This document shows positions 51,200-64,000 of a DNA stretch of 64,000 nucleotides, in pieces. The position numbers and the translations under genes were made by a program. Source of the stretch: a virus (taxonomy: Duplodnaviria > Heunggongvirae > Uroviricota > Caudoviricetes); IMG/VR virus record IMGVR_UViG_3300015365_000054. One strand, given 5' to 3'. The stretch's first letter is position 1. Each line of letters begins with the position of its first letter. Under the pieces are notes generated by a model that was given only the letters and a program-made list of their open reading frames with translations, ran no database searches and was not told the origin of the DNA.

Positions 51200-51204
51200 A
51201 ATGA

Positions 51205-51627: not shown

Positions 51628-51644
51628 AACAAATTCCTCGTATT

Positions 51645-51717
51645 TGGTAGCGGGCTAGGGTAACGATCCCTATTCGACTTAGGCTTATGAGACCTAGCGG
51701 TGCCATCACAACCCGCA
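51645..51717 (-). tRNA. tRNA-Met/fMet/Ile2 (anticodon CAT) with an unpaired 1-72 position and an atypical T-loop ATCGTTA
   Basis: Acceptor TGCGGGT/GCCCGCT with T-T at 1-72. Anticodon arm TAGGT-CTCATAA-GCCTA, T-arm TAGGG-ATCGTTA-CCCTA, CCA encoded. The 1-72 mismatch suggests an initiator. Confidence 0.5.
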
Positions 51718-51721
51718 AAAC

Positions 51722-51796
51722 TGGTGCGCAAAGAAGGACTTGAACCTTCATCCTCGGTTTCGTAAACCGAAATTCTCTCCATTGAACTATTCGCGC
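51722..51796 (-). tRNA. tRNA-Arg (anticodon ACG)
   Basis: Acceptor GCGCGAA/TTTGCGC, anticodon arm TCGGT-TTACGAA-ACCGA, T-loop TTCAAGT, CCA encoded. Confidence 0.75.
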
Positions 51797-51801
51797 AAAA
51801 T

Positions 51802-51876
51802 TGGTTGTGGCGGTCAGACTCGAACTGACACATAATCCCCTATGATGGGATCTTTCTACCATTGAACTACACCACA
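51802..51876 (-). tRNA. tRNA-Met or Ile2 (anticodon CAT)
   Basis: Acceptor TGTGGTG/CGCCACA, D-arm AGTTCAATGGTAGAA, anticodon arm ATCCC-ATCATAG-GGGAT, T-loop TTCGAGT, CCA encoded. Confidence 0.7.
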
Positions 51877-52093
51877 ATATTATTTATTTAAACAATACAT
51901 ATCCGGCATCAGATGGGAAGGAACTTCCCCAATCCATAATTTTCTTAATATCGTCCGCTTCACTTGCACCATCTACTTGCCCAACATAGTACTTGTGACT
52001 AAAATCATCACAAATTACCTTAACAATGCCGACATTACCATGTCCCGCACAAAACCACTTTACACCAACAAATGATTGCATATATACCTCTTG

Positions 52094-52167
52094 TGGGTTT
52101 ACTGAGATTCGAACTCAGATCATACTGGGTAAGAGCCAGATATAATAGCCATTATACGATAAACCCA
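52094..52167 (-). tRNA. tRNA-Lys (anticodon CTT); the anticodon assignment is tentative
   Basis: Acceptor GGGTTTA/TAAACCC, T-arm CTGAG-TTCGAAT-CTCAG. Best anticodon parse is a 4-bp stem with loop CTCTTAC. Confidence 0.5.
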
Positions 52168-52181
52168 AATTAATTGCAAAC

Positions 52182-52400
52182 TTAAACTCCAAAATGGTCA
52201 ATAATTCTCGCAACTGCTTCATATGCCACACCATTTTCGTCTTTCCTAATTTGTGCAATGCATTCATTCACAATCAATGCGGTGAACTTTTGTAAATCTT
52301 CTTCTTTATAGAACTTGACAGAGGTTGACATACCTTCCCACCATCCAGGGAAGAATTCTCCACCAGCCTGTTCAGCCAATACTTTAATTCTTTCATTCAT
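52182..52400 (-). CDS. hypothetical protein (72 aa)
   Basis: ORF only. Confidence 0.3.
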   Translation of the reverse strand: MNERIKVLAEQAGGEFFPGWWEGMSTSVKFYKEEDLQKFTALIVNECIAQIRKDENGVAYEAVARIIDHFGV

Positions 52401-52581
52401 ACATCACCATCAACTTCTAAAATCAACTCGAAACCAAACGCCAGTCGCATCACACCTTTCTTCAGCATCAGCAAACTGATCTGCTTCGGGGACATTATCA
52501 AACTCCGCCACATCCTTTTCCCAAGTTTCATAACCATCGTTAAAGCATCTGACCACAACCCACGTCATTTCAATCTCCTGA

Positions 52582-52827
52582 TTAAACACAACCTTCTAAT
52601 AACTGACTGACCCAGATCGATTTAGTATTATCGACCAACGTCCCGTCACTGGTTGCAACTTTAACCTTAACAACACGATCTGGTTTACCAAATCTCTTAG
52701 AAACATCTTCTAGTGATAGAACTGTAGAGACGTAGAAGAAAGCATCCCCATACCAACCTTTGCGTAAACTGCTAGTGAATATATCACCAACTTTCACGTT
52801 TAAATAATTTGGGTTATTTGCTGGCAT
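52582..52827 (-). CDS. hypothetical protein (81 aa)
   Basis: ORF only. Confidence 0.3.
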   Translation of the reverse strand: MPANNPNYLNVKVGDIFTSSLRKGWYGDAFFYVSTVLSLEDVSKRFGKPDRVVKVKVATSDGTLVDNTKSIWVSQLLEGCV

Positions 52828-52908
52828 TTCTCTCTACCTCAATTCACTATAGAATCATTATACACGAAAAAAGTAAAAAAGCAATAGAAAAATTAGACAA
52901 ATTTAAAA

Positions 52909-52984
52909 TGGCGACCCCGCAAGGATTCGAACCTCGATTTTACGGCTTTGGAGACCGATGTAATAGCCATTATACCACGGAGTC
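52909..52984 (-). tRNA. tRNA-Trp (anticodon CCA)
   Basis: Acceptor GACTCCG/CGGGGTC (one G-T), discriminator G, CCA encoded. Anticodon loop CTCCAAA on a 4-bp stem, T-loop TTCGAAT. Confidence 0.6.
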
Positions 52985-53075
52985 ATAGTGCTAGGACTCG
53001 AACCTAGTATCGTAATGCGATTTCACGTAGGGCAACGTAACCTTCCTACGCCTTACCATACAGCTGGAGGCACAT
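52985..53075 (-). other. tRNA-like element: canonical T-arm (CTAGG-TTCGAGT-CCTAG) without a resolvable acceptor stem
   Basis: Perfect T-arm at 52991..53007 abutting tRNA-Trp. No complementary 5' acceptor strand within 120 nt. Possible pseudo-tRNA or a fold I could not resolve. Confidence 0.3.
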
Positions 53076-53108
53076 TTGATAGCAAAATCCTGCCACTGTA
53101 TATATTTA

Positions 53109-53183
53109 TGGTGTGACATGCAGGATTCGAACCTACATCAAGAGTTTAGGAAACTCCTATTCTATCCATTGAACTAATGTCAC
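53109..53183 (-). tRNA. tRNA-Arg (anticodon CCT)
   Basis: Acceptor GTGACAT/ATGTCAC, anticodon arm GGAGT-TTCCTAA-ACTCT, T-loop TTCGAAT, CCA encoded. Confidence 0.65.
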
Positions 53184-53186
53184 AAT

Positions 53187-53606
53187 TTATCGCCCACATT
53201 TGGTGGCTATTTCCACTAGATTGGGTGTTTCCAACACTGTTCTACTTGCTAAGAAACGGGTATCTGAAGAGTCACCATCTATCCTAACCCAAATGTATTC
53301 TGATGGTTTGGGTTCGATGTATTTAACCACGCCACGGCTGATTCTCTCGAATCCATGAAAAATACCTACTCTACTACCGATATTAACAGTGTCAATCTCT
53401 AAAATGGTTTTTAATTTGGCTGTCAGGATATTTTTCTGTATTGGGGATGATGTAGCATCATCAACACATACACCAATGATCATTTTTGTATATTCCTTTA
53501 GATCAAAGTTATCACACTGAGAACACGAATCAAAATCATCTTCTTGCCACCCAGCCTGTGCTGCTATTTTTTCCCATCTATTCATAATATTCATAACCTT
53601 ACTCAT
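53187..53606 (-). CDS. hypothetical protein (139 aa)
   Basis: ORF only. Cys pair CSQCDN near the N-terminus. Confidence 0.35.
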   Translation of the reverse strand: MSKVMNIMNRWEKIAAQAGWQEDDFDSCSQCDNFDLKEYTKMIIGVCVDDATSSPIQKNILTAKLKTILEIDTVNIGSRVGIFHGFERISRGVVKYIEPKPSEYIWVRIDGDSSDTRFLASRTVLETPNLVEIATKCGR

Positions 53607-53626
53607 AATCTACCTCTATATTAAAT

Positions 53627-53710
53627 TGGTGCGAGTGGTCGGACTCGAACCGACATGATTTTCATCGACGGATTTTAAGTCCGTTGCGTCTACCATTTCA
53701 CCACACTCGC
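53627..53710 (-). tRNA. tRNA-Leu (anticodon TAA), class II
   Basis: Acceptor GCGAGTG/CACTCGC, anticodon arm ACGGA-CTTAAAA-TCCGT, long variable arm, T-loop TTCGAGT, CCA encoded. Confidence 0.75.
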
Positions 53711-53711
53711 A

Positions 53712-53930
53712 TTATGCATTAATTTTCTTTACAAATTTATCATATAGGATTTTAAGTTTAATTTTAATTGTCTGATCCCTATCAACCAAGTACGTGATGG
53801 AATTACCTGTTTTTTCTATCACGTAATAATTTTTAACTATGTTACGAAATGTTTCATCTTCCACAAAATACATGTATAACAAATCCCAGCCTTCCGGTGT
53901 GATATTTTCAGCTTGTAATTCTTGTATCAT
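53712..53930 (-). CDS. hypothetical protein (72 aa)
   Basis: ORF only. Confidence 0.3.
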   Translation of the reverse strand: MIQELQAENITPEGWDLLYMYFVEDETFRNIVKNYYVIEKTGNSITYLVDRDQTIKIKLKILYDKFVKKINA

Positions 53931-53939
53931 AAATCCCCC

Positions 53940-54272
53940 TTAGAACATTGTTCTTATTTCTATTCCATATTTGGATGGTCTGATATAAGTGTTTCCTAAC
54001 CAGACACCAAGTGATGCTCCAACAGCATCAGCCAACAAATCGCCCTTTGAAAATATGTTGTTATGTTGTCTTGAATCAATAATTTCTTTGATAAGACCAG
54101 ATGCCATAGCAACACCAAAAGCAGCATATTTGTTTTCTATCAGTGTCCCTGATGCAGCACCTAATAATAGGGATACACCAGCATGATAGTTTTTGTCAAC
54201 ACCATATGTATCCGTCTCTGCTGCAATGGCTGTTGATGATAAAAGTAACAATAAAATATATAATGTTTTCAT
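53940..54272 (-). CDS. small secreted or membrane protein with an N-terminal signal peptide and a Gly/Ala-rich hydrophobic core (110 aa)
   Basis: MKTLYILLLLLSSTAIAAE signal peptide. Gly-zipper-like segments GAASGTL and GVAMASG. Confidence 0.35.
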   Translation of the reverse strand: MKTLYILLLLLSSTAIAAETDTYGVDKNYHAGVSLLLGAASGTLIENKYAAFGVAMASGLIKEIIDSRQHNNIFSKGDLLADAVGASLGVWLGNTYIRPSKYGIEIRTMF

Positions 54273-54478
54273 ACAGTGATGTTATTGACGAATGAATCCA
54301 ATACTTCCATTTTAAATCGGTTACATCCAAAACTATCTTTCTGATTGTCCATTTCATATCTATCCGAAGTAGAATATGCCTCTCTTTCATCAGTATGAAT
54401 GGAGACAACATCTATTGTATCATCTATTATATCTCGACGTATTACAACATATAACATTTTAACATTTATGTCCATCAA
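54269..54478 (-). CDS. hypothetical protein (69 aa)
   Basis: ORF only. Confidence 0.25.
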   Translation of the reverse strand: MMDINVKMLYVVIRRDIIDDTIDVVSIHTDEREAYSTSDRYEMDNQKDSFGCNRFKMEVLDSFVNNITV

Positions 54479-54499
54479 TAAACCCTCATGATATTAAAT

Positions 54500-54577
54500 T
54501 GGTCGGGTATGCAGGATTTGAACCTGCAACCTTCTGCTCCCAAAGCAGACGCACTACCAAGTTGTGCTAATACCCGA
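54500..54577 (-). tRNA. tRNA-Pro (anticodon TGG), copy 1
   Basis: Acceptor (T)CGGGTA/TACCCGA, anticodon arm TCTGC-TTTGGGA-GCAGA, T-loop TTCAAAT, CCA encoded. Confidence 0.7.
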
Positions 54578-54586
54578 ATTTCAAAA

Positions 54587-54662
54587 TGGTGCAAGGTCCA
54601 AGATTTGAACTTGATTCTTACCGTCTTCAGCGGTACGCTATGACCACACCAGCTCACCTTGC
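54587..54662 (-). tRNA. tRNA-Phe (anticodon GAA)
   Basis: Acceptor GCAAGGT/ACCTTGC, anticodon arm TACCG-CTGAAGA-CGGTA, T-loop TTCAAAT, CCA encoded. Confidence 0.8.
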
Positions 54663-55297
54663 AATATTCTTTTGTATTCTGCTTTCTCAACAATTACTAT
54701 TTTTTTATCCGGATGCTGTTCCATTACAGCCTCCATTTTTTGCTTATCATTTCCCCACCAGTATCCTTTAATCTCAAGATAAACATTAAATCCAGAGAGA
54801 TAGAAATCTGGAGAGTAAGATCTAATTTTACCATTTAATACATACTTTATCAAATCTGTATTGGTTTTTGGTTTGCTCCAGTCAATTCCCATTTCGTTTA
54901 ACTTTAATGCTATATTGTATTCCCATGTACCTTGTACCTTAATACCATTAACATCAAACCATTTACATTTTCCGCCACGATTTTTTATGGATTGTTCTTC
55001 GCTTAATTTCAAGCGAGCTGATTCCCCCATACGATTGATTCGATATGTGCCGTTTTTAACTTTAGTTTGTAGTGTATCTGAAACTGCTTTGGCGTGTCTT
55101 GCTACAGCATCACTAGTTTCTTTTGTTAATCCTTTATTCCACGCAGGAACCCCAACTGGGTGACCAACTTTACCTGGTCTATTTGCACGTTCTTCTTGCA
55201 TTCGTAAACACTTTGATTGATGATCTTTATGTCTAGTTGATACAATAGATTTATTACAATGAATACAATTTCTATAACTCTTAATATACATGGGCAT
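54638..55297 (-). CDS. putative endonuclease: N-terminal Zn-finger plus C-terminal PD-(D/E)xK-like domain (possible free-standing homing endonuclease)
   Basis: CIHCNKS...H..H..C finger and a C-terminal YSPDFYL...NVYLEIKGYW (D...E-x-K) motif. The 3' end overlaps tRNA-Phe by about 25 nt, so the true stop may differ. Confidence 0.3.
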   Translation of the reverse strand: MPMYIKSYRNCIHCNKSIVSTRHKDHQSKCLRMQEERANRPGKVGHPVGVPAWNKGLTKETSDAVARHAKAVSDTLQTKVKNGTYRINRMGESARLKLSEEQSIKNRGGKCKWFDVNGIKVQGTWEYNIALKLNEMGIDWSKPKTNTDLIKYVLNGKIRSYSPDFYLSGFNVYLEIKGYWWGNDKQKMEAVMEQHPDKKIVIVEKAEYKRILQGELVWS

Positions 55298-55368
55298 ATC
55301 TCCTCTACACCAATGTATTTATTATTCAGTGCTAATCCATCTCAGCTAAGTTGGCAAATAAACGACTT

Positions 55369-55447
55369 TGGGGTGACTGGTGGGACTTGAACCCACAAAA
55401 ATCCAAGGTCACAGCTTGGGATGTCTACCAATTCCATCACAGTCACC
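55369..55447 (-). tRNA. tRNA-His (anticodon GTG) with an encoded G-1
   Basis: 8-bp acceptor G-1 plus GTGACTG paired with CAGTCAC plus C73. Anticodon arm CCAAG-CTGTGAC-CTTGG, T-loop TTCAAGT, CCA encoded. Confidence 0.8.
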
Positions 55448-55480
55448 CCAAAGTCGTCTAATTATAAGATAACACACCAG

Positions 55481-55570
55481 ATGCTGATCAGGCATTTACA
55501 GGAATCGAACCTGCCACCCTGTGGTACAAGGCTGTATCCAACGACCCATTGCGCATGGGCTAGTGTGTTA
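55481..55570 (-). other. tRNA-like element: T-arm (GCAGG-TTCGATT-CCTGT) lacking a matching acceptor stem, flanked by the inverted repeat AACACAC/GTGTGTT
   Basis: T-arm at 55498..55514. No 5' strand complementary to AAATGCC was found. Possible degenerate tRNA. Confidence 0.25.
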
Positions 55571-55807
55571 TATTCGAATTTGTTTACCGCTACTCGTTAC
55601 CACGAAATTGAATAGCTGAATCAACGTATTGATCTGCTGCACACATCGGATTCACACATAACGGCAGTGGTGTGGTTATGTGCTTTTGGGTATCTGTGCA
55701 CACACGTAAACAAAATAGGTTAAATATCTAAATATACTAAATAAAGGTGTCTGTCACGATATTAGCAGTATCCACAGACTCTAGTAACTTAATAGGAGTA
55801 TACCAGC

Positions 55808-56617
55808 ATGTCTATTTATTCAACAATATATTGTTCCTGCATTATCTGTAAGGAAGTAAGACCATCCAAAGGCATTCGTTCTCACTACGCTGCTTCACAT
55901 ACCGAAGAAGGTAGGAAGCGAATAAAGGAAAATGGTATTCTATATGGTAAACTTGGCAGAGATACCTTTAAAAAGAAATGCACATCTAAAAAAGAATATG
56001 CAATTCACCAATATAATTTATCACCTAATACATGTAAACATTGTAATAGTATATTAGATTTTGATAAAAAAAGCAATAAATTTTGTTCACAATCATGTTC
56101 TGTTTCCTATTCTAACAAAAGAAGACATAAAATATTATCTCAAACTGCACTTGATAATATCCGTAACGCTAACTTAGTTCGTTCTGTTGTTGCTGGTGAT
56201 TATTGTAGAATTTATCGCTGTAGGAAATGTCAAAAATATCACCCATCAACCGAACAAAAACATTTATGTTGTAAAGATTCATCTACCGCATATAGACCAT
56301 TATGTAAATTTTCCTTTAATCTCGGTGATTATCCAGAAGAGTTCGACTTGAGTTTAATAGAAAAGCATGGAATGTTTTCCCCAACAAAAAATCCAACTGG
56401 AGTATCAAGGGATCATATGGTTTCTATTGATTATGCGTTTAAGCATAAAATAGATCCATCAATAATCAGGCATCCAGCAAATTGTAGGATTATTCTACAA
56501 AAAGATAATTCTCAAAAACACACTAAGAGCGAAATATCTTTAGATGAATTACTATATAGAATTATCGATTGGGATATCAAATATCAATCTAGGAATGGTG
56601 GGTCCGCTGAGAGTTGA
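55808..56617 (+). CDS. HNH-type endonuclease-like protein with N-terminal Cys-rich zinc-finger repeats (possible homing endonuclease)
   Basis: C-terminal SRDHMVSIDYAF...HPANCRIILQKDNSQKH is HNH-like (DH..N..H). Multiple CxxC pairs upstream. Only plus-strand gene inside the minus-strand tRNA array. Its 3' end overlaps tRNA 56596..56672 on the other strand. Confidence 0.45.
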   Translation: MSIYSTIYCSCIICKEVRPSKGIRSHYAASHTEEGRKRIKENGILYGKLGRDTFKKKCTSKKEYAIHQYNLSPNTCKHCNSILDFDKKSNKFCSQSCSVSYSNKRRHKILSQTALDNIRNANLVRSVVAGDYCRIYRCRKCQKYHPSTEQKHLCCKDSSTAYRPLCKFSFNLGDYPEEFDLSLIEKHGMFSPTKNPTGVSRDHMVSIDYAFKHKIDPSIIRHPANCRIILQKDNSQKHTKSEISLDELLYRIIDWDIKYQSRNGGSAES

Positions 56618-56672
56618 ACTCAGAGTTTCATCGATTATGAGTCGAGTGTTTTGACCATTAAACTACAGACCC
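56596..56672 (-). tRNA. tRNA-Met (anticodon CAT), G1-C72 paired, so elongator Met or Ile2
   Basis: Acceptor GGGTCTG/CGGACCC, anticodon loop CTCATAA on a TCGA/TCGA stem, T-arm CTGAG-TTCAACT-CTCAG, CCA encoded. Confidence 0.65.
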
Positions 56673-56679
56673 CAAACAT

Positions 56680-56955
56680 TTACAATTTCTCAGTAGGATT
56701 CCATATAGTAACAATAAATCTGTTTTGTCCTTTTCCAATAGAATGCTGTTCATATCCATCAGGAATAGAAACATACCAATTGTTTTTTCTAGCTTCACTT
56801 ATGGATTTAAACTTACCAATCCTAGCAAGAAGATGTGCCATTGTTTTATCAGATTCTTCCAATGGAATGATTATATCATCTCCACCAAATCCAAGCAAAT
56901 CATTATCAACATCAGATTGATAATTTTTTCCAACAATGACAAAATTATTTTTCAT
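56680..56955 (-). CDS. hypothetical protein (91 aa)
   Basis: ORF only. Confidence 0.3.
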   Translation of the reverse strand: MKNNFVIVGKNYQSDVDNDLLGFGGDDIIIPLEESDKTMAHLLARIGKFKSISEARKNNWYVSIPDGYEQHSIGKGQNRFIVTIWNPTEKL

Positions 56956-56971
56956 ATAATCTCCAAAACAA

Positions 56972-57046
56972 TTGGCAGGGGATGGTGGTAACGCTCCACC
57001 TCACTCGGTTTCAAAGACCGATATCTGCTCTTATCGATTTATCCCC
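56972..57046 (-). tRNA. tRNA-Gln (anticodon TTG) with atypical T-loop AGCGTTA
   Basis: Perfect acceptor AGGGGAT/ATCCCCT, discriminator G, CCA encoded. Anticodon arm TCGGT-CTTTGAA-ACCGA, T-arm GGTGG-AGCGTTA-CCACC. Confidence 0.55.
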
Positions 57047-57052
57047 TATAAA

Positions 57053-57127
57053 CTGGAGTTGTGGACTGGATTTGAACCAGCGTAATAGAATTTTGCAGAC
57101 TCTAACCTAACCACTCGGTCACCACAA
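57053..57127 (-). tRNA. tRNA-Cys (anticodon GCA)
   Basis: Acceptor GTTGTGG/CCACAAC, discriminator T, CCA encoded. Anticodon arm AGAGT-CTGCAAA-ATTCT, T-loop TTCAAAT. Confidence 0.65.
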
Positions 57128-57146
57128 CATAAACCTGCGAAATCAA

Positions 57147-57320
57147 TTTGGTTTATACCAAACACATTCCTTATCATGTTCTAATTCTTTTCCCACATAG
57201 TGTGGAGCACCACAACAATTACAGTAACTATCAATACCAGTTCGTCGTATTAGTTCCTGTATATCTCTCTGGTGATAAAATTCCCTCAACCATTCGGAAA
57301 AATTAAATTCTTTATCCATA
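57147..57320 (-). CDS. small Cys/His-rich zinc-finger-like protein (57 aa, below the ORF-track cutoff)
   Basis: Minus-strand ORF MDKEFNFSEWLREFYHQRDIQELIRRTGIDSYCNCCGAPHYVGKELEHDKECVWYKPN between two tRNAs. Confidence 0.25.
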
Positions 57321-57345
57321 AAAATTACCCCAACAATAAAATAAA

Positions 57346-57435
57346 TTGGCGGAAGGTACAGGATTCGAACCTGTGTGCCCTTTTCAGAACCATCTGTTTA
57401 GCAAACAGTGTCAATTAGCCACTCTGACAACCTCC
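57346..57435 (-). tRNA. tRNA-Ser (anticodon GCT), class II
   Basis: Acceptor GGGAGGT/ACCTTCC, discriminator G, CCA encoded. Anticodon loop TTGCTAA on stem CTGT/ACAG, long variable arm, T-arm ACAGG-TTCGAAT-CCTGT. Confidence 0.6.
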
Positions 57436-57747
57436 CATAAATTTTATCTTAAAAACTGTTCCGGTTGGTGTGGTCATTGGTTGAACATCAACTAGACTTG
57501 CAGCGATTATAGATGGATACAAACCTCGTACCTTTCTTGTGTAGATTCTAAAAGCACGTATCATATACAATTTCTTATGTCTACCGGATAACTTATTATA
57601 TCGATGTGATGTACCAGCCTTTTCATGATTGGTAATAGCATCTGTTAACTGTTTTTCCAAGTATTCTAATGTATGCTTCATATATAACCTGTATATAATT
57701 GGTGCCCTCACGAGGTAACGCTCCCCGAACTGATGATTACAAGTCAA
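57415..57747 (-). CDS. hypothetical basic protein (110 aa; may start at the internal MKHTLEY)
   Basis: ORF whose last 20 nt overlap the tRNA-Ser(GCT) 5' end. Uncertain. Confidence 0.25.
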   Translation of the reverse strand: MTCNHQFGERYLVRAPIIYRLYMKHTLEYLEKQLTDAITNHEKAGTSHRYNKLSGRHKKLYMIRAFRIYTRKVRGLYPSIIAASLVDVQPMTTPTGTVFKIKFMGGCQSG

Positions 57748-57781
57748 CTGTTATACTACTTAACTATAAGGGCAAATCATT

Positions 57782-57857
57782 TGGTGCACAGTGTAGGACT
57801 CGAACCTACATCTTCCACTTTGTAAGAATGGTGCTTAACCCCTCAGACCAACTGTGC
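57782..57857 (-). tRNA. tRNA-Val (anticodon TAC)
   Basis: Acceptor GCACAGT/ACTGTGC, anticodon arm CCATT-CTTACAA-AGTGG, T-arm GTAGG-TTCGAGT-CCTAC, CCA encoded. Confidence 0.7.
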
Positions 57858-57864
57858 GTGAATT

Positions 57865-57946
57865 TGGTGGAAGCCGAGGGAGTTGAACCCTTCTAGTCAG
57901 CAATCTTGCAAGGATTACCCGTAACCCGTTACTGCCCCCATGAAAT
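57865..57946 (-). other. tRNA-like element with an Ala-type anticodon arm (TAATC-CTTGCAA-GATTG, anticodon TGC) but no resolvable acceptor stem
   Basis: T-loop TTCAACT with only a 4-bp stem. The 3' end GGCTTCC-A-CCA has no complementary 5' strand before tRNA-Tyr begins. Possible pseudo-tRNA-Ala. Confidence 0.3.
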
Positions 57947-58031
57947 TGGTGGAATGTACTGGGATCGAACCAGTCGTGCCATTAGGCGGCTGATTTACAG
58001 TCAGCTGCATCACCATTGATGCTTCCACTCC
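57947..58031 (-). tRNA. tRNA-Tyr (anticodon GTA), class II
   Basis: Acceptor GGAGTGG/ACATTCC (6 of 7 pairs), D-arm GCAT-CAATGGTG-ATGC, anticodon arm GCTGA-CTGTAAA-TCAGC, variable hairpin GCC-TAAT-GGC, T-arm ACTGG-TTCGATC-CCAGT, CCA encoded. Confidence 0.7.
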
Positions 58032-58042
58032 GAAATAAAATT

Positions 58043-58118
58043 TGGCGGTCTTAGGGGGTAACGATCCCCACTCTTCGGCAGTGACAGTACCGTGTGCGTC
58101 CATAAACACTTTAAGACC
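58043..58118 (-). tRNA. tRNA-Asp (anticodon GTC) with atypical T-loop ATCGTTA
   Basis: Perfect acceptor GGTCTTA/TAAGACC, discriminator G, CCA encoded. D-stem GTGT/GCAC, anticodon arm CGGTA-CTGTCAC-TGCCG, T-arm (T)GGGG-ATCGTTA-CCCC(C). 76 nt. Confidence 0.55.
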
Positions 58119-58262
58119 TATGTTCTTTTCTTTCCAGCATATGTACTGGTTTGTGAGTGACAATTTGGACAGACCAATCTGATGTTTTCTGGTCTATTAT
58201 CATTATTGATGCCATTCACATGATCGACTTGAAGCGATAGGTAATTGCCATTCTTTATAGCG

Positions 58263-58280
58263 TACCATATAGAAACACAC
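58263..58280. repeat. 18-nt repeat copy 1 (TACCATATAGAAACACAC)
   Basis: Matches 58480..58497 with one mismatch and is the inverse complement of 58341..58357. Confidence 0.75.
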
Positions 58281-58340
58281 TGCGTTGACAAATCTTGTCA
58301 ATAACACATAATCTTATTTCGACACTGCTTATTCCTACAT

Positions 58341-58357
58341 TGTGTTTCTATATGGTA
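58341..58357. repeat. inverted copy of the 18-nt repeat (TGTGTTTCTATATGGTA), itself embedded in a CCTACAT/ATGTAGG hairpin
   Basis: Reverse complement of copy 1. Confidence 0.75.
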
Positions 58358-58479
58358 TGTAGGGCGGGGGGTGGTTTTAATTCCCGTTTCAAACGATAGT
58401 CCGGACTATCTACGCGGTTATCAGTGAACTTTGCTTCCGCAACCTAACTAAGTCTTTGTCGTTTCGGTTACTTCCTACA

Positions 58480-58497
58480 TACCATATAGGAACACAC
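58480..58497. repeat. 18-nt repeat copy 3 (TACCATATAGGAACACAC), preceded by TCCTACAT like the inverted copy
   Basis: One mismatch relative to copy 1. Confidence 0.75.
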
Positions 58498-58688
58498 CTA
58501 ATTTGTTCAATGCTGACACAAAGAACCTTTCGCAACTGTTAGGTCACCGCAGACAGCACTGCGGCTTAGGGCAGCACTGAATGCGTCAGGAATGTTCATA
58601 TATGGTACTAATTTTTAAAGAACGTTTAATATCTAATTAATATAACATTATTTAACGTACATGTCAACAAGATTCACATTACCATAAA

Positions 58689-59111
58689 TTACAGTAACTT
58701 CAAATGTCCAGTAATTGGATCTAATTTCTCTGGAAATTCGGGTCCAATAGCTACTACAGTGTTAGTAGGAACCCCATGAAATTCAGTTAATCCACTATCA
58801 GTAATTAATGAACAAAGTATACCAGCATCTTGTGCTTTTTTATAAAGATCAAGTAATTCTTCTTCTGAATCTACTGATACACAAACTTTAGTAAATTTTC
58901 CTTTAATCCAATTGTTTAATGGACTGTTATAGTACAACGGAAGAACTAACCCATCTATTACATGATTTTCATCATTAGTATATTCTTCCATTAAATCCAA
59001 TAACACTTTCATTGAAGCATGTGCGACTTGCGCAGCAATTTTACCTTTACGCATGTTCAAGTCTTTTCGCACAATTAAAATTTGTTTTGGTTCACTCATA
59101 TTATCCCACAT
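58689..59111 (-). CDS. peptidyl-tRNA hydrolase, PTH2 (archaeal/eukaryotic type) family
   Basis: KGKIAAQVAHASMKV and ITDSGLTEFHGVPTNTVVAIGP match the PTH2 signature segments (GKxAAQxxHA and DAGxTEfxGxPTxTAxAIGP). 140 aa. Confidence 0.7.
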   Translation of the reverse strand: MWDNMSEPKQILIVRKDLNMRKGKIAAQVAHASMKVLLDLMEEYTNDENHVIDGLVLPLYYNSPLNNWIKGKFTKVCVSVDSEEELLDLYKKAQDAGILCSLITDSGLTEFHGVPTNTVVAIGPEFPEKLDPITGHLKLL

Positions 59112-59301
59112 ATGTTGATTGTTGATACTGAAATGTTCTGGTATGGACTCGCACCATACTCCGCTCTATCCACAAACTACTAATGAATACGGAACTTGTA
59201 CTTCATTCTATCTTATCACTTTCACCTAAAGCACATGCACATCAAACACTTCAGAACATATCAATAATCTGTACTAGTGATAACGCACACTAGCAAGCAA
59301 A

Positions 59302-59377
59302 GTCTGATTGTTGGCGCGTCTGGTAGGATTCGAACCTACGTTTATCTGCTTAGAAGGCAGATGCCTGATCCACTAGA
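59302..59377 (-). tRNA. tRNA-Arg (anticodon TCT)
   Basis: Acceptor GCGTCTG/CAGACGC, discriminator G, CCA encoded. Anticodon arm TCTGC-CTTCTAA-GCAGA, T-arm GTAGG-TTCGAAT-CCTAC. Confidence 0.8.
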
Positions 59378-59383
59378 CTACAG

Positions 59384-59459
59384 ACGCATAATTTGGTAGG
59401 CATGAGTGGAATTGAACCACACATCTATGAGTTATCAGCTCATTGTTCTCGCCATTGAA
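59384..59459 (-). tRNA. tRNA-Ile (anticodon GAT)
   Basis: Acceptor GGGCATG/CATGCCT, anticodon arm ATGAG-CTGATAA-CTCAT, T-loop TTCAATT, CCA encoded. Confidence 0.7.
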
Positions 59460-59467
59460 CTACATGC

Positions 59468-59544
59468 CCAATAAAATTGGCTCCACCTCGTGGGTTCGAA
59501 CCACGCAATTTCTGATTAACAGTCAGACCCGTTCACCAAGCTCG
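59468..59544 (-). tRNA. tRNA-Asn (anticodon GTT)
   Basis: Perfect acceptor TCCACCT/AGGTGGA, discriminator G, CCA encoded. Anticodon arm TCTGA-CTGTTAA-TCAGA, T-arm CGTGG-TTCGAAC-CCACG. Confidence 0.75.
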
Positions 59545-59617
59545 GTCAGGTGGAATAAAATTGGTCGTTTATTATAGACCGAACGATAGCGGTCACCTCT
59601 TTCTACCACTGGTAGGT
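59545..59617. other. 73-nt spacer folding into three consecutive hairpins; contains an ATCGTT T-loop-like segment and a TATAAT box but no foldable tRNA
   Basis: Minus sense CTACC-agt-GGTAG, GACCG-ctatcgtt-CGGTC and GGTC-tataataaac-GACC, ending ACCA. Confidence 0.3.
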
Positions 59618-59703
59618 GAGCAAAAATTGGAGCGGATAGCGAGACTCGAACTCGCGTGCAACTTTCGTTTGCTGGTTTGGAAGACCAGTGCCTGACCTCT
59701 AGG
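59618..59703 (-). tRNA. tRNA with a Gly anticodon (TCC) but a 16-nt class-II-like variable region (86 nt)
   Basis: Perfect acceptor GCGGATA/TATCCGC, discriminator T, CCA encoded. Anticodon arm CTGGT-CTTCCAA-ACCAG, variable region CAAACGAAAGTTGCAC (hairpin AAC-gaaa-GTT), T-arm GCGAG-TTCGAGT-CTCGC. Confidence 0.5.
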
Positions 59704-59707
59704 CTAT

Positions 59708-59783
59708 ATCCGCAAATTGGTACTCCAGAAGGGATTCGAACCCTCTCTTCAAGATTGAAAGTCTTGCGATCTGACCGATTAAT
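59708..59783 (-). tRNA. tRNA-Glu (anticodon TTC)
   Basis: Anticodon arm CAAGA-CTTTCAA-TCTTG, T-arm GAGGG-TTCGAAT-CCCTT, CCA encoded. Acceptor has one mismatch and one wobble. Confidence 0.6.
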
Positions 59784-59786
59784 CTA

Positions 59787-59860
59787 CAGGAGCATATGGT
59801 GGGGGTGTAGGGTACTGACCCCTATTTTACGAGTTAAAAGCTCGGTACTTCACCTTAAAG
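59787..59860 (-). tRNA. tRNA-Lys (anticodon TTT) with a non-canonical T-loop (GTCAGTA)
   Basis: Perfect acceptor GGGGGTG/CACCCCC, discriminator A, CCA encoded. Anticodon loop CTTTTAA on a 4-bp stem CGAG/CTCG, T-stem TAGGG/CCCTA. Confidence 0.5.
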
Positions 59861-59868
59861 TTTCACCC

Positions 59869-59954
59869 CCCCGAAACTTGGTGCCTGTGGAGGGAATCGA
59901 ACCCCCAATCTCGTATGAGCAATGCGTTCTAAGCGCATCGTGTATCCCGTTCCA
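59869..59954 (-). tRNA. tRNA-Leu (anticodon TAG), class II
   Basis: Perfect acceptor GCCTGTG/CACAGGC, discriminator A, CCA encoded. Anticodon arm ATGCG-CTTAGAA-CGCAT, variable hairpin CTC-atac-GAG, T-loop TTCGATT. Confidence 0.75.
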
Positions 59955-59958
59955 CCAC

Positions 59959-60035
59959 ACAGGCAAATTGGTCAGCTAGGCAGGACTCGAACCTGCAACC
60001 ACATGCTCCCAAAGCATGCATTCTCGCCAATTGAA
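59959..60035 (-). tRNA. tRNA-Pro (anticodon TGG), copy 2 with a different body
   Basis: Perfect acceptor CAGCTAG/CTAGCTG, discriminator A, CCA encoded. Anticodon arm CATGC-TTTGGGA-GCATG, T-arm GCAGG-TTCGAGT-CCTGC. Confidence 0.65.
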
Positions 60036-60533
60036 CTACTAGCTGTGAAATCATTGTATGTCTCTCCATACTGTCACGCACTCTTGAATTAAGAATAGTG
60101 GCGTTGACTATATTCGTAAAACTAATATGTTATTAAAGATCATAATTCCAATCAACTTAGGATTAGAACCCCAGCTTACTTTATACTGGGTCTTTTATCA
60201 AAAGAGACAAAAGACAGAATTCATAATAAATCATGCCGCATTTTTCATCGTCGGATGACGACTTGGGATTTTTCACAATCCTACCCAATTTGGGAAGTAG
60301 CGGATCACTCCAGATAATTCCGGTTTACTATATAGTCATATTATATAATTATATAGCACTTTTTTTGAAAAATCAACACATTTTTATTAAAAATTTAAAA
60401 CTTTTAACTAAATGTCTAGCGGCTGATTCATCATGTGAAGCATTATACACGCTAACCAAAAGAAGTCAATACATATTTTACATAAACACTAAATATTAAT
60501 TATACCCCAACCCATCTGAACACAAGGACAATC

Positions 60534-61607
60534 ATGAAGCCACGAGTGATCTTTATACTAAAACGACGCGAAGATTATAATGCAATTACACATTCCCATA
60601 TTGGATTGAGCACCGGATTATACAATTCAGCAAATTTCATGAATGAAATGCTGAATTCAATGCACATAGAAAGCAAACTCGTGGTGGTTCCGGATAACAA
60701 TCATATTGACAGGGAAGTAACAAAACACAAACCCACACACGTCATAATAGAAGCATTGTGGGTAGTTCCACAGAAATTTAATATATTAAAGAAACTACAC
60801 CCTAAAGTCAAATGGATAATCAGATTACATAGTGAGATGCCATTTATGGCTGGTGAAGGTATGGCTATGGATTGGATTGGTGATTACAGTGAAATTGATA
60901 ACGTTATTCTTGGTATCAATGCACCAAGAATGTATCATGAAGTTAAAAATTATCTAAAAATAAAGAACAATTGGAATGAAGCCACCAGCAATGAGAAAGT
61001 AGTATATCTACCAAATTACTATCCACAGCAATATAAGAAAACGAAAAAAATAGACAAGAACAAAGATACTATTGATATTGCATGTTTTGGAGCCATACGT
61101 CCATTGAAAAATCACTTGGTTCAAGCATTTGCTGCTATAGAATTTGCTGATAGAATTGGTAAGAAATTAAACTTCCATGTTAATGCAGGTAGAATCGAAA
61201 TGAATGGTTCACCAGTAATAAACAATCTGAAAGGATTATTTCAACATTTACACGGAAAACATGAACTAATAAACCACACATGGTGTCCAAGGGAACAATT
61301 CTTAGAGCTATGTTCTACTATGGATATTGGGGTACAATCCAGCTTTTCGGAAACATTTAATATTGTCGGTGCGGATCTTATAAGTCAGGGTGTACCTCTT
61401 GTTGGTAGCACAGAAATTCCTTGGTGTTCTACATTATATACAGCTGATCCAACAGATAGTAGAGACATAGCGAACAAATTGGAGAGGTCATATAACTGGG
61501 CATGCGCCAATGTGTTCCTCAATCAAGGATTACTATATGACTATTGTGGTACTTCGGCTACCATTTGGTATAAATACATGACACACAAACAAGGTACTAT
61601 TAAATGA
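60534..61607 (+). CDS. glycosyltransferase, GT-B fold (group 1/GT4-like)
   Basis: C-terminal half contains the E-x7-E-type motif (SFSETFNIVGADLISQGVPLVGS) typical of GT4 donor-binding domains. 357 aa. Preceded by AAGGA 8 nt upstream of the ATG. Confidence 0.5.
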   Translation: MKPRVIFILKRREDYNAITHSHIGLSTGLYNSANFMNEMLNSMHIESKLVVVPDNNHIDREVTKHKPTHVIIEALWVVPQKFNILKKLHPKVKWIIRLHSEMPFMAGEGMAMDWIGDYSEIDNVILGINAPRMYHEVKNYLKIKNNWNEATSNEKVVYLPNYYPQQYKKTKKIDKNKDTIDIACFGAIRPLKNHLVQAFAAIEFADRIGKKLNFHVNAGRIEMNGSPVINNLKGLFQHLHGKHELINHTWCPREQFLELCSTMDIGVQSSFSETFNIVGADLISQGVPLVGSTEIPWCSTLYTADPTDSRDIANKLERSYNWACANVFLNQGLLYDYCGTSATIWYKYMTHKQGTIK

Positions 61608-61816
61608 GTAAACATCACCACAACAGAGAAGGATATTTCAAAGCAAGAATCCATAAATGGGATAAGCATGGAAAATTGGCAATTATAGAAGAATACCTAT
61701 CTAGCTTAGATGCCTGTATAGAATACGCAAGAGGATTCCATGGTCACATGGTGAAAATATACGATAATGGTGAATTGATTCATACAGAGAGCATCAGCTA
61801 CGACACCTATGCGTAG
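61604..61816 (+). CDS. hypothetical His-rich protein (70 aa)
   Basis: Start overlaps the glycosyltransferase stop (ATGA). Its stop lies inside the terminator hairpin. Confidence 0.35.
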   Translation: MSKHHHNREGYFKARIHKWDKHGKLAIIEEYLSSLDACIEYARGFHGHMVKIYDNGELIHTESISYDTYA

Positions 61817-61832
61817 CTGATGCTCGTTTTTA
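61792..61832 (+). terminator. intrinsic terminator of the plus-strand pair
   Basis: 11-bp stem CATCAGCTACG/CGTAGCTGATG with a 9-nt loop, followed by CTCGTTTTTA. Confidence 0.65.
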
Positions 61833-62036
61833 CGAATATTCCGATAAAGTCTCTACTCGTTTTTCTGGGAACTCACATGTGTTCTGTTGACACATCCTAC
61901 GTTGATAGTCAACAGTGCAATCTGAGCATATATCAAATTTTCTCACACCCTTATCTTTTGGGATATATTTGATATATTCATTCCATTCTTTCTCAGAAAA
62001 ACATTTCAATTTACTAATCATACAACTCCACACCAC
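61830..62036 (-). CDS. small Cys-rich hypothetical protein (68 aa)
   Basis: Seven Cys residues including CSDC and CQQNTC, possibly a zinc ribbon. Confidence 0.3.
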   Translation of the reverse strand: MVWSCMISKLKCFSEKEWNEYIKYIPKDKGVRKFDICSDCTVDYQRRMCQQNTCEFPEKRVETLSEYS

Positions 62037-62368
62037 TCAACACGACCAAAAGTACCATCCAGAATATTTCCACGAGGGAAATTTGTGGCTGGAGTATTCC
62101 AAGAAGCAGCCTTTAACACATCACCAACACGAAACACTGTTCCTTTCGAATTTGTGAACTCTTTCTTTACAACGAAAGAATGCACATACCTTGCGCCACC
62201 ATCCGATGGACACTGGAAAACTTTAATATACTTTGATCCTGCACTCAGGGACAAAGAAAATGTTCCAGTTGGCATGATGATATAGTCATTATACACTTGT
62301 TTGATATGATCCATATATCGTGCAATTGCAATATCAAAATCTGATTCAGGCAGAGGATCATTATACAT
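62018..62368 (-). CDS. hypothetical protein (116 aa)
   Basis: ORF only. Confidence 0.35.
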   Translation of the reverse strand: MYNDPLPESDFDIAIARYMDHIKQVYNDYIIMPTGTFSLSLSAGSKYIKVFQCPSDGGARYVHSFVVKKEFTNSKGTVFRVGDVLKAASWNTPATNFPRGNILDGTFGRVEWCGVV

Positions 62369-62407
62369 GTGAGTATCCTATGTGATGAATTGAATTATTA
62401 ACAACAA

Positions 62408-62749
62408 TTAATCCAGACGATTACGGGCATTTGCCTTGATGCCATACTTACGCAGTACGTCCGCATAAGCAATTGCACCAAGTTCTTTCACATCAACATT
62501 CTGCACAGGCAGTCCGGACGGATTCCACAAATCCAAACCCTTGTCATATGATTTACGGAAACCAAGTGATACAAGTGTCTTGCCGAGCTTGGTTGATGCC
62601 TTTTCGGAAACATTAACCCAAGCGAAACCACACATAGGACGATCAACACCATTCAAATGTGTCTGGAAGGCATTATTTGCGGCATTATACGCTGCAATCT
62701 TAGCTTCCTCGTGGATCGCTTTCATGGCTTCTACTGTGATAGTGGTCAT
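62408..62749 (-). CDS. hypothetical protein (113 aa)
   Basis: ORF only. Confidence 0.35.
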   Translation of the reverse strand: MTTITVEAMKAIHEEAKIAAYNAANNAFQTHLNGVDRPMCGFAWVNVSEKASTKLGKTLVSLGFRKSYDKGLDLWNPSGLPVQNVDVKELGAIAYADVLRKYGIKANARNRLD

Positions 62750-62805
62750 CAGAATCTCCAGTTACGTTGTCGATGTGAAGTATTACACGCCCAAATTACC
62801 CGAAG

Positions 62806-63390
62806 TCAACAACTTTTTTCAACATTTGTTGATGTTTTTCCGTGGTGTGTCCGGATTTCCCTAGCACCCATCATGGCATCCAGTTCTTCCCAATCCCACA
62901 ACATCATATCACCACCAAATCTGGTGTCAATACCCACGTTGAAGTTTCTACCAGGAATTGGTGCGATTTCTTGGTGAATATGTCCATAGAACATATATGA
63001 TCCATAGTGCATATTTCGCCATTCCCAAACAGGATAGTGAAACATACACACCAGCTGATCACCAATTTTGATTTCCTTATAATCTTGAACAGACACAAAC
63101 AAATCACGCAATGATTTATTGTTGCGAATCACGTTGTCATGGTTGCCATACACCAGATGTATTTGACCAGTCAACTGCTTCATGATGTGTAATGCTCTTT
63201 CATAGTTACAAAAGAACACATCACCAAGAACATAAACCCTATCCTGTGGACGAACTTGTTCACGCCAATTCTTGATCAGAATTTCATCCATTTCCATAAA
63301 GTCTTTTCCCTGACGGGTTTCTCTACAGAAATTCAAAATGTTCTTGTGTGAAAAATGAACATCGCTTGTGAAAAATATTTTCTCAGTCAT
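62806..63390 (-). CDS. calcineurin-like metallophosphoesterase (Ser/Thr phosphatase-like)
   Basis: Motifs SDVHFSH, VLGDVFF and VYGNHD (the GDxHG / GDxxDRG / GNHE-type metal-binding set). Start taken at MTEKIFF, 2 nt after the upstream stop. Confidence 0.75.
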   Translation of the reverse strand: MTEKIFFTSDVHFSHKNILNFCRETRQGKDFMEMDEILIKNWREQVRPQDRVYVLGDVFFCNYERALHIMKQLTGQIHLVYGNHDNVIRNNKSLRDLFVSVQDYKEIKIGDQLVCMFHYPVWEWRNMHYGSYMFYGHIHQEIAPIPGRNFNVGIDTRFGGDMMLWDWEELDAMMGAREIRTHHGKTSTNVEKSC

Positions 63391-64000
63391 AATTTCCTTC
63401 ATATACAATATCCAAAAACCAATCAAAATTTGAATCGTATATCATACGATATTTTTTACCATCTATATCATAATATAATTCACCAAACCCATCTTCAACA
63501 TCATCCCTATAAGGTTGCAGTTTTAATTCATCAATTTTACTACATAGGTTTTTTGTTTCTTCGTCAGACAATTGCCGTTCGTTCATATTTGACTCCAATT
63601 TAATAATATAAAGATATAAATCACGTATTCCACGAGCATCACACAATGCGTTGTGTGGGATTTTGCTTTCGCCAAAATCTATCCTAACAACTTCCATCGT
63701 TAGTGGTGGGGTATCAATACGCATACCTGCACCAACAATAAGAGCATCACAAAAATGCTTAATGTCTTCCGGCCAATCCGCAATAATATGAACCTTGTCA
63801 AATTGAGCAAGAAAATGTTGTAAACTACGTTGCATTTCTTGTACAGATATAGCTGGCTTTCCTAAAATGGGCATAACATGTTCTTTTACCCAAGGACCAG
63901 GATTCTCACATGGAACCACCTCATACCATTCATAGTTACCATCTTCTGATACCAGTGCCATCGATATAAGGTCACCCTTGAATTCATTAAATTCGCAATC
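63383..64000 (-). CDS. DEDDh-family 3'-5' exonuclease (DexA/oligoribonuclease-like), N-terminus beyond the window end
   Basis: Frame is open to the window edge. DCEF at the edge fits Exo motif I (DxE) and HNALCDARGIRDLY fits Exo motif III (H-x4-D). Confidence 0.5.
   Translation of the reverse strand, partial: DCEFNEFKGDLISMALVSEDGNYEWYEVVPCENPGPWVKEHVMPILGKPAISVQEMQRSLQHFLAQFDKVHIIADWPEDIKHFCDALIVGAGMRIDTPPLTMEVVRIDFGESKIPHNALCDARGIRDLYLYIIKLESNMNERQLSDEETKNLCSKIDELKLQPYRDDVEDGFGELYYDIDGKKYRMIYDSNFDWFLDIVYEGNYD

Follow-up and report, generated by a model that had tools for sequence, protein, structure and literature searches.

The repeats in region 58119-58688 of a 64,000-nt stretch of DNA (‘the window’) from a virus of the class Caudoviricetes (IMG/VR record IMGVR_UViG_3300015365_000054), which lies inside a tRNA operon, are the arms of hairpins, and the region is not a replication origin. 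Our data show that the 19-bp stem which these hairpin units share with those of many other phages is under selection for pairing as an RNA hairpin on the tRNA-sense strand, that the units fill the spacers between tRNAs, mostly from the CCA of tRNA-Lys(UUU) to the first base of the next tRNA, and that several classes of the ‘cargo’ domains enclosed by the stem are conserved and covary across distant phages, with some being tRNA-like and carrying a T-arm. For the region as a whole we favour, at a probability of about 0.58, the interpretation that it comprises a short series of genes for small structured RNAs within the phage tRNA operon and not a cluster of DNA-binding sites.

The original prediction, which was made from the sequence of the window, had noticed an 18-mer, TACCATATAGAAACACAC, at three sites, i.e. 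exactly at 58263-58280 (+) and with one mismatch each at 58340-58357 (-) and 58480-58497 (+). This repeat is real and confined to the region: the 64-kb window contains no further copy at up to three mismatches (chance expectation 0.17) and none of 100 shuffled windows reached three copies. A fourth copy, degenerate and inverted (58590-58608), had been overlooked. The four copies form two inverted-repeat pairs, 58263-58282/58338-58357 (55 nt apart) and 58480-58515/58572-58607 (56 nt apart), and the resulting hairpins as well as the tRNAs of the window are on the minus strand, which corrects the earlier account. A CCTACAT element said to accompany every copy is present with two of the three (it is found at 58334 and 58474, its complement ATGTAGG at 58357) but not with the copy at 58263. 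The boundaries had been placed correctly, with the open reading frame (ORF) of a PTH2-family peptidyl-tRNA hydrolase (PF01981; 58689-59111, -) upstream and tRNA-Asp(GTC) (58043-58118, -) downstream, and the G tract (58362-58374, + strand) and the 16-nt palindrome (58395-58410) that had been mentioned are real; both fall into the 122 nt between the two pairs. The label ‘non-coding’ holds only in part, since a minus-strand ORF at 58118-58291 encodes a 57-aa remnant with an HNH motif.

Read on the minus strand, the first pair delimits unit A (58263-58357), in which the 5′ arm (58357-58339, UACCAUAUAGAAACACAAU) and the 3′ arm (58281-58263, AGUGUGUUUCUAUAUGGUA) enclose a cargo of 57 nt; its minimum free energy is -33.6 kcal/mol (z -5.2 versus shuffles). 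In unit B (58480-58608; -54.6 kcal/mol, z -5.9), the arms (58608-58590, GUACCAUAUAUGAACAUUC, and 58497-58480, GUGUGUUCCUAUAUGGUA) flank a structured cargo of 92 nt. Unit A has the consensus of the family described below in its 3′ arm and departs from it at two positions of its 5′ arm, while the stem of unit B keeps a U·C mismatch at family position 10 next to a compensatory G-C pair at position 11. A third unit, C (55460-55580, -), is located outside the region, 14 nt upstream of tRNA-His; its arms have drifted (AAUAUAACACACUAG/CUGGUGUGUUAUCUU) and its cargo contains a T-arm-like hairpin, GCAGGUUCGAUUCCUGU.

An exact scan of IMG/VR for the 17-mer TACCATATAGRAACACA yielded at least 120 contigs, and the family counts given here come from the matches listed. 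The same arms occur in at least 120 uncultured, tRNA-rich phage contigs from freshwater, some of which are about 350 kb long, and the motif, which is the 3′ arm of the hairpin in these related contigs, is invariant across them while the flanks are unrelated from one contig to another. In 596 Gb of bacterial and archaeal genomes the 17-mer has 58 scattered matches, which is close to chance level; a few of these are small contigs of freshwater metagenome-assembled genomes. We counted as family members those arms that match TACCATATAAAAACACAYT and AGTGTGTTTCTATATGGTA and form a stem of about 19 bp with some 30-140 nt of cargo in between, a definition that covers units A and B of the window, with unit C as a diverged member. 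As far as these searches show, this widespread family of hairpins with a shared stem is apparently undescribed: megablast and blastn with the region and with a canonical unit against 50,697 GenBank phage records found no homologue (all that matched was the HNH remnant, at codon level, and a 21-mer in phage NCTB by chance), Rfam 15 assigned only tRNAs and a single GOLLD RNA in the window and 18 related loci and no family to the units, and nothing relevant came up when full texts of the literature were searched for the arm sequences or for accounts of elements of this kind.

That the arms are maintained as the two sides of an RNA stem is apparent from the way in which they vary. Among 148 distinct arm pairs, taken from loci found with the motif and accepted as units when at least 14 of 19 positions paired, standard pairs occupy 91.7% of the cells as compared with 83.1% in shuffles. 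Cells in which both sides have changed number 217, against 57.5 in shuffles (0 of 500 shuffles reached 217) and 12-46 in controls with a slid register. Compensatory changes affect 18 of the 19 stem pairs, e.g. where CTATTCT/AGAATAG or CCAAACA/TGTTTGG replaces CCATATA/TATATGG, and the stem variants in the family include CATATTGAAGTACA. Pair 10 is non-standard in 96 of the 148 arm pairs, nearly always A·C, and stays mismatched while its neighbours covary; its minority states are G-C (23) and A-U (22), with G·U virtually absent. Moreover, the variation distinguishes the strands: outside pairs 10 and 18, wobbles are of the G·U type on the sense strand in 131 cases versus 21 of the A·C type, and among the units with arms that are unlike at pair 10, all 97 run in the direction of the tRNAs. 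In the window, too, the 5′ arm precedes the 3′ arm on the minus strand, i.e. the strand of all of its at least 27 tRNAs. Selection for an RNA hairpin thus follows from strong covariation, a conserved A·C mismatch and a sense-strand preference for G·U.

ARAGORN recognized 1976 tRNAs in 117 loci, all on one strand within each locus. Along this strand, the order is tRNA, (U)ACCAUAUAAAAACACAYU, a variable stretch, AGUGUGUUUCUAUAUGGUA and the next tRNA, with the ACCA of the 5′ arm being the discriminator base plus CCA of the upstream tRNA. Among the loci found by the motif, a unit directly follows 80 of 97 tRNA-Lys(UUU) genes, as compared with 18 of 86 for tRNA-Glu(UUC), 8 of 80 for tRNA-Gln(UUG) and at most 6% for any other tRNA. 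Loci that had been fetched via a neighbouring protein, and not via the motif, have a unit in 12 of 14 distinct tRNA-Lys(UUU) contexts, some with variant arms; empty tRNA-Lys sites exist among the loci as well. At the other end, 103 of 214 contexts have the start of a tRNA no more than 20 nt beyond the 3′ arm; in 49 of these, the initial G of GGUA in the arm is also the first base of the tRNA. What lies within the hairpin is the variable stretch and not a tRNA, because tRNA-Lys is preceded by a 3′ arm in only 2 of 84 cases; tRNA-Lys as the enclosed module was therefore rejected. Most units are solitary, and back-to-back tandem units also occur. A lone canonical unit with perfectly complementary arms (L025:6586-6758) is found in a tRNA-less intergenic region with the surrounding genes on the other strand, where it is preceded by a σ70-like promoter (TTGACA, 17 nt, TAAAAT) and a small GC hairpin.

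The cargo is not a neutral loop. It measures 11-139 nt, mostly 40-65 nt, comes in 202 distinct sequences that fall into 144 clusters, and is rarely cut down to a short loop (13 nt in only 2 of about 170 detected units). Homologues of the unit B cargo are present in four other loci (L090, L059, L092 and L117); of 49 predicted pairs, 19 have both partners changed. The cargo of unit C is homologous to that of canonical-armed units in L079, L031 and L093, a class conserved with compensatory changes, and the cargo class of unit D, a different unit of a sibling genome, has covarying homologues in which 15 of 44 pairs have changed on both sides. T-arm-like hairpins are confined to some cargos, and several others end in hairpins of the GGUUCGAAUCC type. 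Antisense targets of the cargos were sought in all fetched loci, where only homologous units matched.

At the level of whole loci, the units behave as exchangeable cassettes, as 104 pairs of loci have the same cargo with neither flank shared and six pairs share both flanks around unrelated cargos. Exchange can also be seen between close relatives of the window phage. Sibling contigs were found via the exact Pth2 protein in a JGI (Joint Genome Institute) sample and in the ENA ‘GROS21’ metagenomes, from which six loci were fetched; a search of IMG/VR with a Pth2 peptide pattern found no close relatives. Four of the six match the window without mismatch over the region of the repeats: L259, L261 and L262 are 100% identical over 56600-59200, and L264 is 98.8% identical over this range with no difference within 58000-58720. 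Locus L260 has an indel at window position 57079-57133, with 100 nt there versus 53 nt in the window. In L263, the flanks of which are 98-99.8% identical, 210 nt with a truncated B-like hairpin and a unit with the variant arms CTATATTAAAGTACACTC/GAGTGTACTTTAATATGG stand in place of 502 nt of the window (58570-58069), which comprise the rest of unit B, the element between the units (termed ‘mid’), unit A, the HNH remnant and the 5′ half of tRNA-Asp. Thus, the two contigs have different sets of units and different 5′ halves of tRNA-Asp (L263:1436-1634 versus window 58069-58570). The locus is therefore a hot spot for replacement, and in cis the region is dispensable.

The HNH ORF (58118-58291, -; motif LQVDHVNGINNDNRPENIRLVCPNCHSQT) begins with a TTG start inside unit A, runs through the 3′ arm of this unit and stops at the first base of tRNA-Asp. 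It scores above the Pfam cutoffs for HNH_3 (26.3 bits, cutoff 24.8) and HNH (25.4 bits, cutoff 21.4), and at the DNA level it matches the central part of complete HNH genes, e.g. ORF162 (227 aa) of Enterococcus phage 113. Because it has only 57 aa and aligns to the middle of a 227-aa gene, we judge it to be the likely remnant of a decayed homing-type endonuclease gene; it is also the reason why blastn reports ‘HNH endonuclease’ genes of unrelated phages. Its presence fits this part of the tRNA cluster being a recombination hot spot, and we infer that the breakpoint in tRNA-Asp beside it is the expected trace of homing-endonuclease-driven conversion. By analogy with the PeSL elements of T4-like phages, for which recombination at short motifs has been proposed, a DNA-level cassette mechanism acting at the arms probably operates as well.

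The ‘mid’ element (58358-58479, -) stands where related phages have a tRNA. Its ends form a 7-bp acceptor-like stem, AUGUAGG/CCUACAU, together with the flanking bases 58480 and 58357, its 3′-terminal ACCA overlaps the 5′ arm of unit A, and it contains the palindrome as a hairpin (58395-58410) as well as a C-rich tract, i.e. the complement of the G tract mentioned above. As a tRNA it is called neither by ARAGORN at default settings nor by Rfam RF00005, with only a weak internal call at the 80% threshold; a tRNA with an intron was rejected for want of a convincing call, and no homologue of ‘mid’ is present in any fetched locus. Directly upstream of unit B there is not a tRNA but a σ70-like promoter site (58667-58639, -; TTGACA, 17 nt, TG-n-TATATT with an extended -10; 11 of 12 hexamer matches), which follows closely on Pth2, precedes unit B by about 22-30 nt and is unchanged in sibling contig L263. 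From its match to the consensus, this site is the predicted start of a transcript with the units and the downstream tRNAs. On the other strand, the cargo of unit A includes a palindrome, TTGACAAATCTTGTCAA, that overlaps a second, strong promoter-like sequence (58285-58312, +; TTGACA, 16 nt, CATAAT; 11 of 12), which would drive transcription antisense to the tRNA operon.

In the interpretation that we favour, each unit would be a tRNA-sense hairpin in which the near-invariant 19-bp basal stem, usually with A·C at pair 10, encloses a variable and independently folded cargo domain. The σ70-like promoter at 58667-58639 would give rise to a transcript that covers the units of the window, tRNA-Asp and the downstream tRNAs, and the enzymes that process tRNA ends would free the units as discrete RNAs of about 90-130 nt: cleavage by RNase P at the next tRNA (in the window perhaps at the acceptor-like ‘mid’) would set the 3′ end and an endonucleolytic cut after the upstream CCA the 5′ end, with blunt-ended hairpin RNAs as the products. 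The invariant stem with its mismatch could serve as a common handle for a protein or a double-strand-specific RNase and also confer stability, whereas the cargo may provide a specific activity, e.g. tRNA mimicry or a function as decoy or adaptor in a tRNA-centred phage-host conflict. Recognition by a common factor is suggested because the stem is near-invariant and its A·C mismatch selected, diversifying cargo functions because the cargos are diverse and exchanged.

Several points weigh against this interpretation. Transcription, excision and stability are proposed from the position of the units and from established knowledge of RNase P and tRNA 3′-end processing, and the idea of a handle from the invariance of the sequence and the kept mismatch. 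In the window itself, neither unit A nor unit B has genuine tRNAs as neighbours: the 5′ arm of unit A starts in the ACCA of ‘mid’, which is acceptor-like but not a recognizable tRNA and the fold of which is not significant (z -1.7). Unit A has G-C at pair 10, a state shared with 23 of the 148 family arm pairs, and an orphan cargo with no clear homologue among the fetched loci. The choice of loci by the motif and by a pairing threshold inflates the 91.7% of paired cells, and the 217 double changes are not independent events, because many loci are related; the contrast with the slid registers and the strand asymmetry are, however, independent of both locus selection and relatedness. Finally, the shuffling of cassettes and the replacement in L263 fit a mobile or recombining DNA element equally well.

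Such a DNA element, i.e. a selfish or recombining cassette resembling miniature inverted-repeat transposable elements (MITEs), integron attC sites or PeSLs, in which the arms are transposase or recombinase sites or short homologies and the RNA hairpin is a by-product, is compatible with the RNA reading and would become its main rival if the RNAs failed to accumulate; as an explanation of the units we consider it rather unlikely. The MITE-like insertion envisaged in the original prediction is borne out in so far as the units are swappable, with the same cargo in different flanks (104 pairs), unrelated cargos in identical flanks (six pairs) and, between flanks of about 99% identity in L263, 502 nt swapped for 210 nt with other units. 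Empty tRNA-Lys sites, the HNH remnant beside unit A and the resemblance of the arms to terminal inverted repeats point in the same direction. Yet the variation of the outer arms is complementary and not direct, so that no target-site duplication is seen, and the interior is not conserved (202 distinct cargos in 144 clusters), and a MITE in the strict sense was rejected in spite of its inverted arms. An attC site was likewise rejected, since the arms have no R″/R′ boxes (RYYYAAC/GTTRRRY) and there is no integrase among the recurrent neighbouring ORFs; nor is a transposase or integrase consistently nearby. Moreover, the biases in wobbles (131 versus 21) and orientation (97 versus 0) together with the compensatory changes argue for selection on a single-stranded sense fold, and drift of the arms, as in unit C, has left cargo classes conserved and covarying. 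Alternatively, the stem could be a pure processing or insulating stalk, i.e. an RNase III-type site or a folding insulator for the flanking tRNAs, in particular tRNA-Lys, around a functionless cargo. It does span the distance from the discriminator and CCA of the upstream tRNA to the first bases of the next one, it is tightly linked to tRNA-Lys(UUU), and with 19 bp or more it has about the size of RNase III substrates. A generic double-strand site would, however, require neither a near-invariant sequence nor a kept A·C mismatch, the cargo classes are conserved by compensatory changes and seldom reduced to a short loop (2 of about 170 at 13 nt), and units also occur without flanking tRNAs (the lone unit of L025; units A and B of the window), all of which makes a mere stalk improbable.

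Two further readings take the arms as protein-binding DNA. A phage-specific promoter or promoter-terminator, T7-like or PeSL-like and starting at the GG that follows CTATAT in ...CTATATGGTA, could account for a conserved block of about 15 nt behind which, in 49 contexts, a GG coincides exactly with the 5′ end of the next tRNA, and the core CTATA(T)GG loosely resembles promoters of the T7/SP6 type. PeSLs, too, join a promoter to a stem-loop and mediate shuffling in T4-like phages (PMC4122927). The promoter reading is nevertheless quite improbable, given that the arms covary as base pairs, that back-to-back tandem units would set promoters head to head, that neither a single-subunit RNA polymerase nor a U tract for termination was seen, and that CTATATGG is absent upstream of the other tRNAs of the window, for which reason a general promoter role there is unlikely. 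The original prediction had put foremost that a DNA-binding protein recognizes the direct and inverted copies as iterons, be it in a replication origin or at a site for partition or packaging. The motif is indeed present in both orientations within 350 bp, and there is an AT-rich stretch at 58600-58690, but the latter coincides with the promoter-like site, there is no direct-repeat array, and the cumulative GC skew is monotonic through the region. The copies pair as arms of hairpins and covary in the manner of RNA with a G·U bias on the sense strand, and in related phages they occur one to several times per tRNA array, always co-oriented with transcription of the tRNAs and exactly between tRNA ends. 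As, furthermore, much of the region is replaced in a sibling genome, this claim has to be abandoned as very improbable, while the structured non-coding RNA that had been mentioned as a fallback is supported by hairpin pairing, covariation and strand bias.

Known systems resemble the units in some respects and differ in others. In murine gammaherpesvirus 68, the TMERs (tRNA-microRNA-encoded RNAs) reportedly consist of a viral tRNA-like element followed by pre-microRNA hairpins. Here, as proposed in principle for the units, a viral tRNA is directly followed by hairpin RNAs that are freed by the cell's tRNA 3′-end processing, but the TMERs are eukaryotic (with RNA polymerase III, tRNase Z and Dicer), are microRNA precursors and have no sequence or family relation to the units. 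The tRNA cluster of phage T4 contains the small stable RNA species 1 and 2 (rnaC/rnaD) with unknown function, and E. coli 3′ETS-leuZ is a regulatory RNA derived from a tRNA spacer. Like the proposed units, these are non-tRNA RNAs co-transcribed with tRNAs and cut out by tRNA processing; unlike them, they are without a shared invariant stem, cargo diversity and the link to tRNA-Lys. The MITE-like palindromic repeats of bacteria (Correia, ERIC and REPIN) as well as integron attC sites are elements of about 100-150 bp with inverted arms; Correia and ERIC elements are transcribed as hairpins, and attC sites are folded single-stranded with conserved unpaired bases and a variable centre. They share with the units inverted arms, folding as hairpin or single strand and a link to the reshuffling of cassettes, whereas the units have no target duplication, conserved interior or GTTRRRY boxes and are strictly oriented with the tRNAs.

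The nearest architecture is that of YrlA and other Y RNAs. YrlA RNAs (RF02553; Chen et al. 2014, PMC4201824) are likewise about 80-130 nt long, combine a long end-pairing stem with a variable or tRNA-like module and are also encoded by phages, and some cargos, e.g. those of the unit C class, similarly place a T-arm-like hairpin atop the long stem. However, the units have an invariant stem and a hypervariable module, while in YrlA it is the reverse, with a GNCGAA(N0-1)G motif for Ro/Rsr binding near the 5′ end and nearly invariant T and D arms (PMC4201824). Invariant T and D arms common to all units do not exist, and GNCGAA is absent from the arms; GGCGAAAG occurs only inside cargo of the unit B class, in three of five members and not in that of the window. 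The YrlA (RF02553) and Y_RNA (RF00019) models have no match at E ≤ 1 in window 49000-64000, and canonical units of six loci match neither model; the only YrlA matches in these loci, at 24-25 bits, are on tRNAs. No homologue of Ro60/TROVE or DUF2828 was found among those ORFs of the 64-kb window that were scanned. A link to a Ro-like protein found no support: a DUF2828-vWA protein gene adjoins the arrays in related phages, but canonical units are present in only 23 of 79 such loci, and DUF2828-vWA has no sequence link to solved Ro60 structures.

PeSLs (Arbiol 2010, PMC2839356; Comeau 2014, PMC4122927), in which an early promoter and a terminator hairpin flank protein genes of T4-like phages, are similar in being short conserved stem-loop motifs in plastic regions that act as exchange points between unrelated modules; the arms of the units differ in that they pair across the module, covary in the manner of RNA and sit at tRNA ends. 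CRISPR and TIGR arrays, with their direct repeats and short spacers of even length, were rejected on their dimensions: TIGR arrays have repeats of 8-12 nt, spacers of 9 nt and RNAs of 36 nt (PMC12045711), whereas the arms of the units are inverted, the cargo of 11-139 nt is structured and most units are solitary. GOLLD and ROOL (RF02032; PMC12286853), large structured RNAs of unknown function, are also found in phage tRNA arrays, but they are much larger, with a conserved complex fold that the units do not match. A GOLLD RNA with an embedded tRNA (L090:10884-11346, -; 198.9 bits) is located in the same tRNA array as one of the homologues of unit B.

The tRNA cluster of the window, with 27 tRNAs recognized by ARAGORN on the minus strand and a few more by Rfam, has additional peculiarities. 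Missed by ARAGORN were tRNAs at 57950-58031 (-; Rfam 34.8 bits) and 59800-59870 (-; Rfam 42.9 bits), and a tRNA-like sequence at about 57860-57945 (-) with CCA at its end is called by neither. The leader and trailer of tRNA-His are complementary over 24 nt (92%; 55356-55379/55440-55463), a pairing that adds about 12 bp to the acceptor stem and may be a processing stalk, and a 14-nt inverted repeat with a CCATATAG core around tRNA-Met(CAT) (56549-56562/56698-56711) may be a relic of arms. Also inside the cluster are genes for a DenV-like pyrimidine-dimer glycosylase (50485-50931, -), an endonuclease-I-like protein (54638-55297, -) and, on the opposite strand, a relative of DUF559-like endonucleases (55808-56617, +).

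Genes related to tRNAs or to the healing of RNA ends include, in the window, Pth2, an Rnl2-type RNA ligase domain (42494-43099, -, upstream of the tRNA cluster), a metallophosphoesterase and a dual-specificity phosphatase, to which the neighbourhoods of related phages add an AAA_33 kinase, a PF04308 RNase-H-like protein and DUF2828-vWA. This gene content fits a role in phage-host conflict over tRNAs. In a series of loci from freshwater phage contigs of up to about 350 kb (L179-L257, e.g. L192 and L227), DUF2828 and DUF7788 (vWA) genes stand beside very dense tRNA arrays with up to 39 tRNAs in 14 kb, and recurrent ORFs encode metallophosphoesterase, PF04308 RNase-H-like, AAA_33 kinase, phosphatase and RpoZ-like proteins.

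A more far-reaching view, which we consider unlikely, is that the units constitute a modular phage RNA system in which the A·C-mismatched duplex docks onto one dedicated protein and the cargos are swapped tRNA mimics, decoys or adaptors directed against tRNA-targeting defences. The docking partner could be a phage protein encoded next to the tRNA arrays, e.g. the DUF2828-vWA protein or the PF04308 RNase-H-like protein, or a host RNase. In this case, the link to tRNA-Lys(UUU), tRNA-Glu(UUC) and tRNA-Gln(UUG), which are the tRNAs classically attacked by anticodon nucleases, would have a functional and not a historical basis.

Overall, dozens of folded RNA domains with no relation to each other are found on a single 19-bp stem that is almost identical in more than 100 genomes of uncultured phages and is attached to the 3′ end of tRNA-Lys(UUU). 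Phage tRNA clusters are now viewed as counter-defence gear, and the non-tRNA RNAs inside them are almost unexplored. For annotation, the units account for ‘empty’ gaps in phage tRNA arrays, and they show that repeats of this kind should not be taken for origins. If the units are expressed, they would represent a new class of modular viral small RNAs that comes with an alignment, a handle for pull-down and natural cassette variants, and they could be a natural scaffold for the expression of RNAs from tRNA operons.

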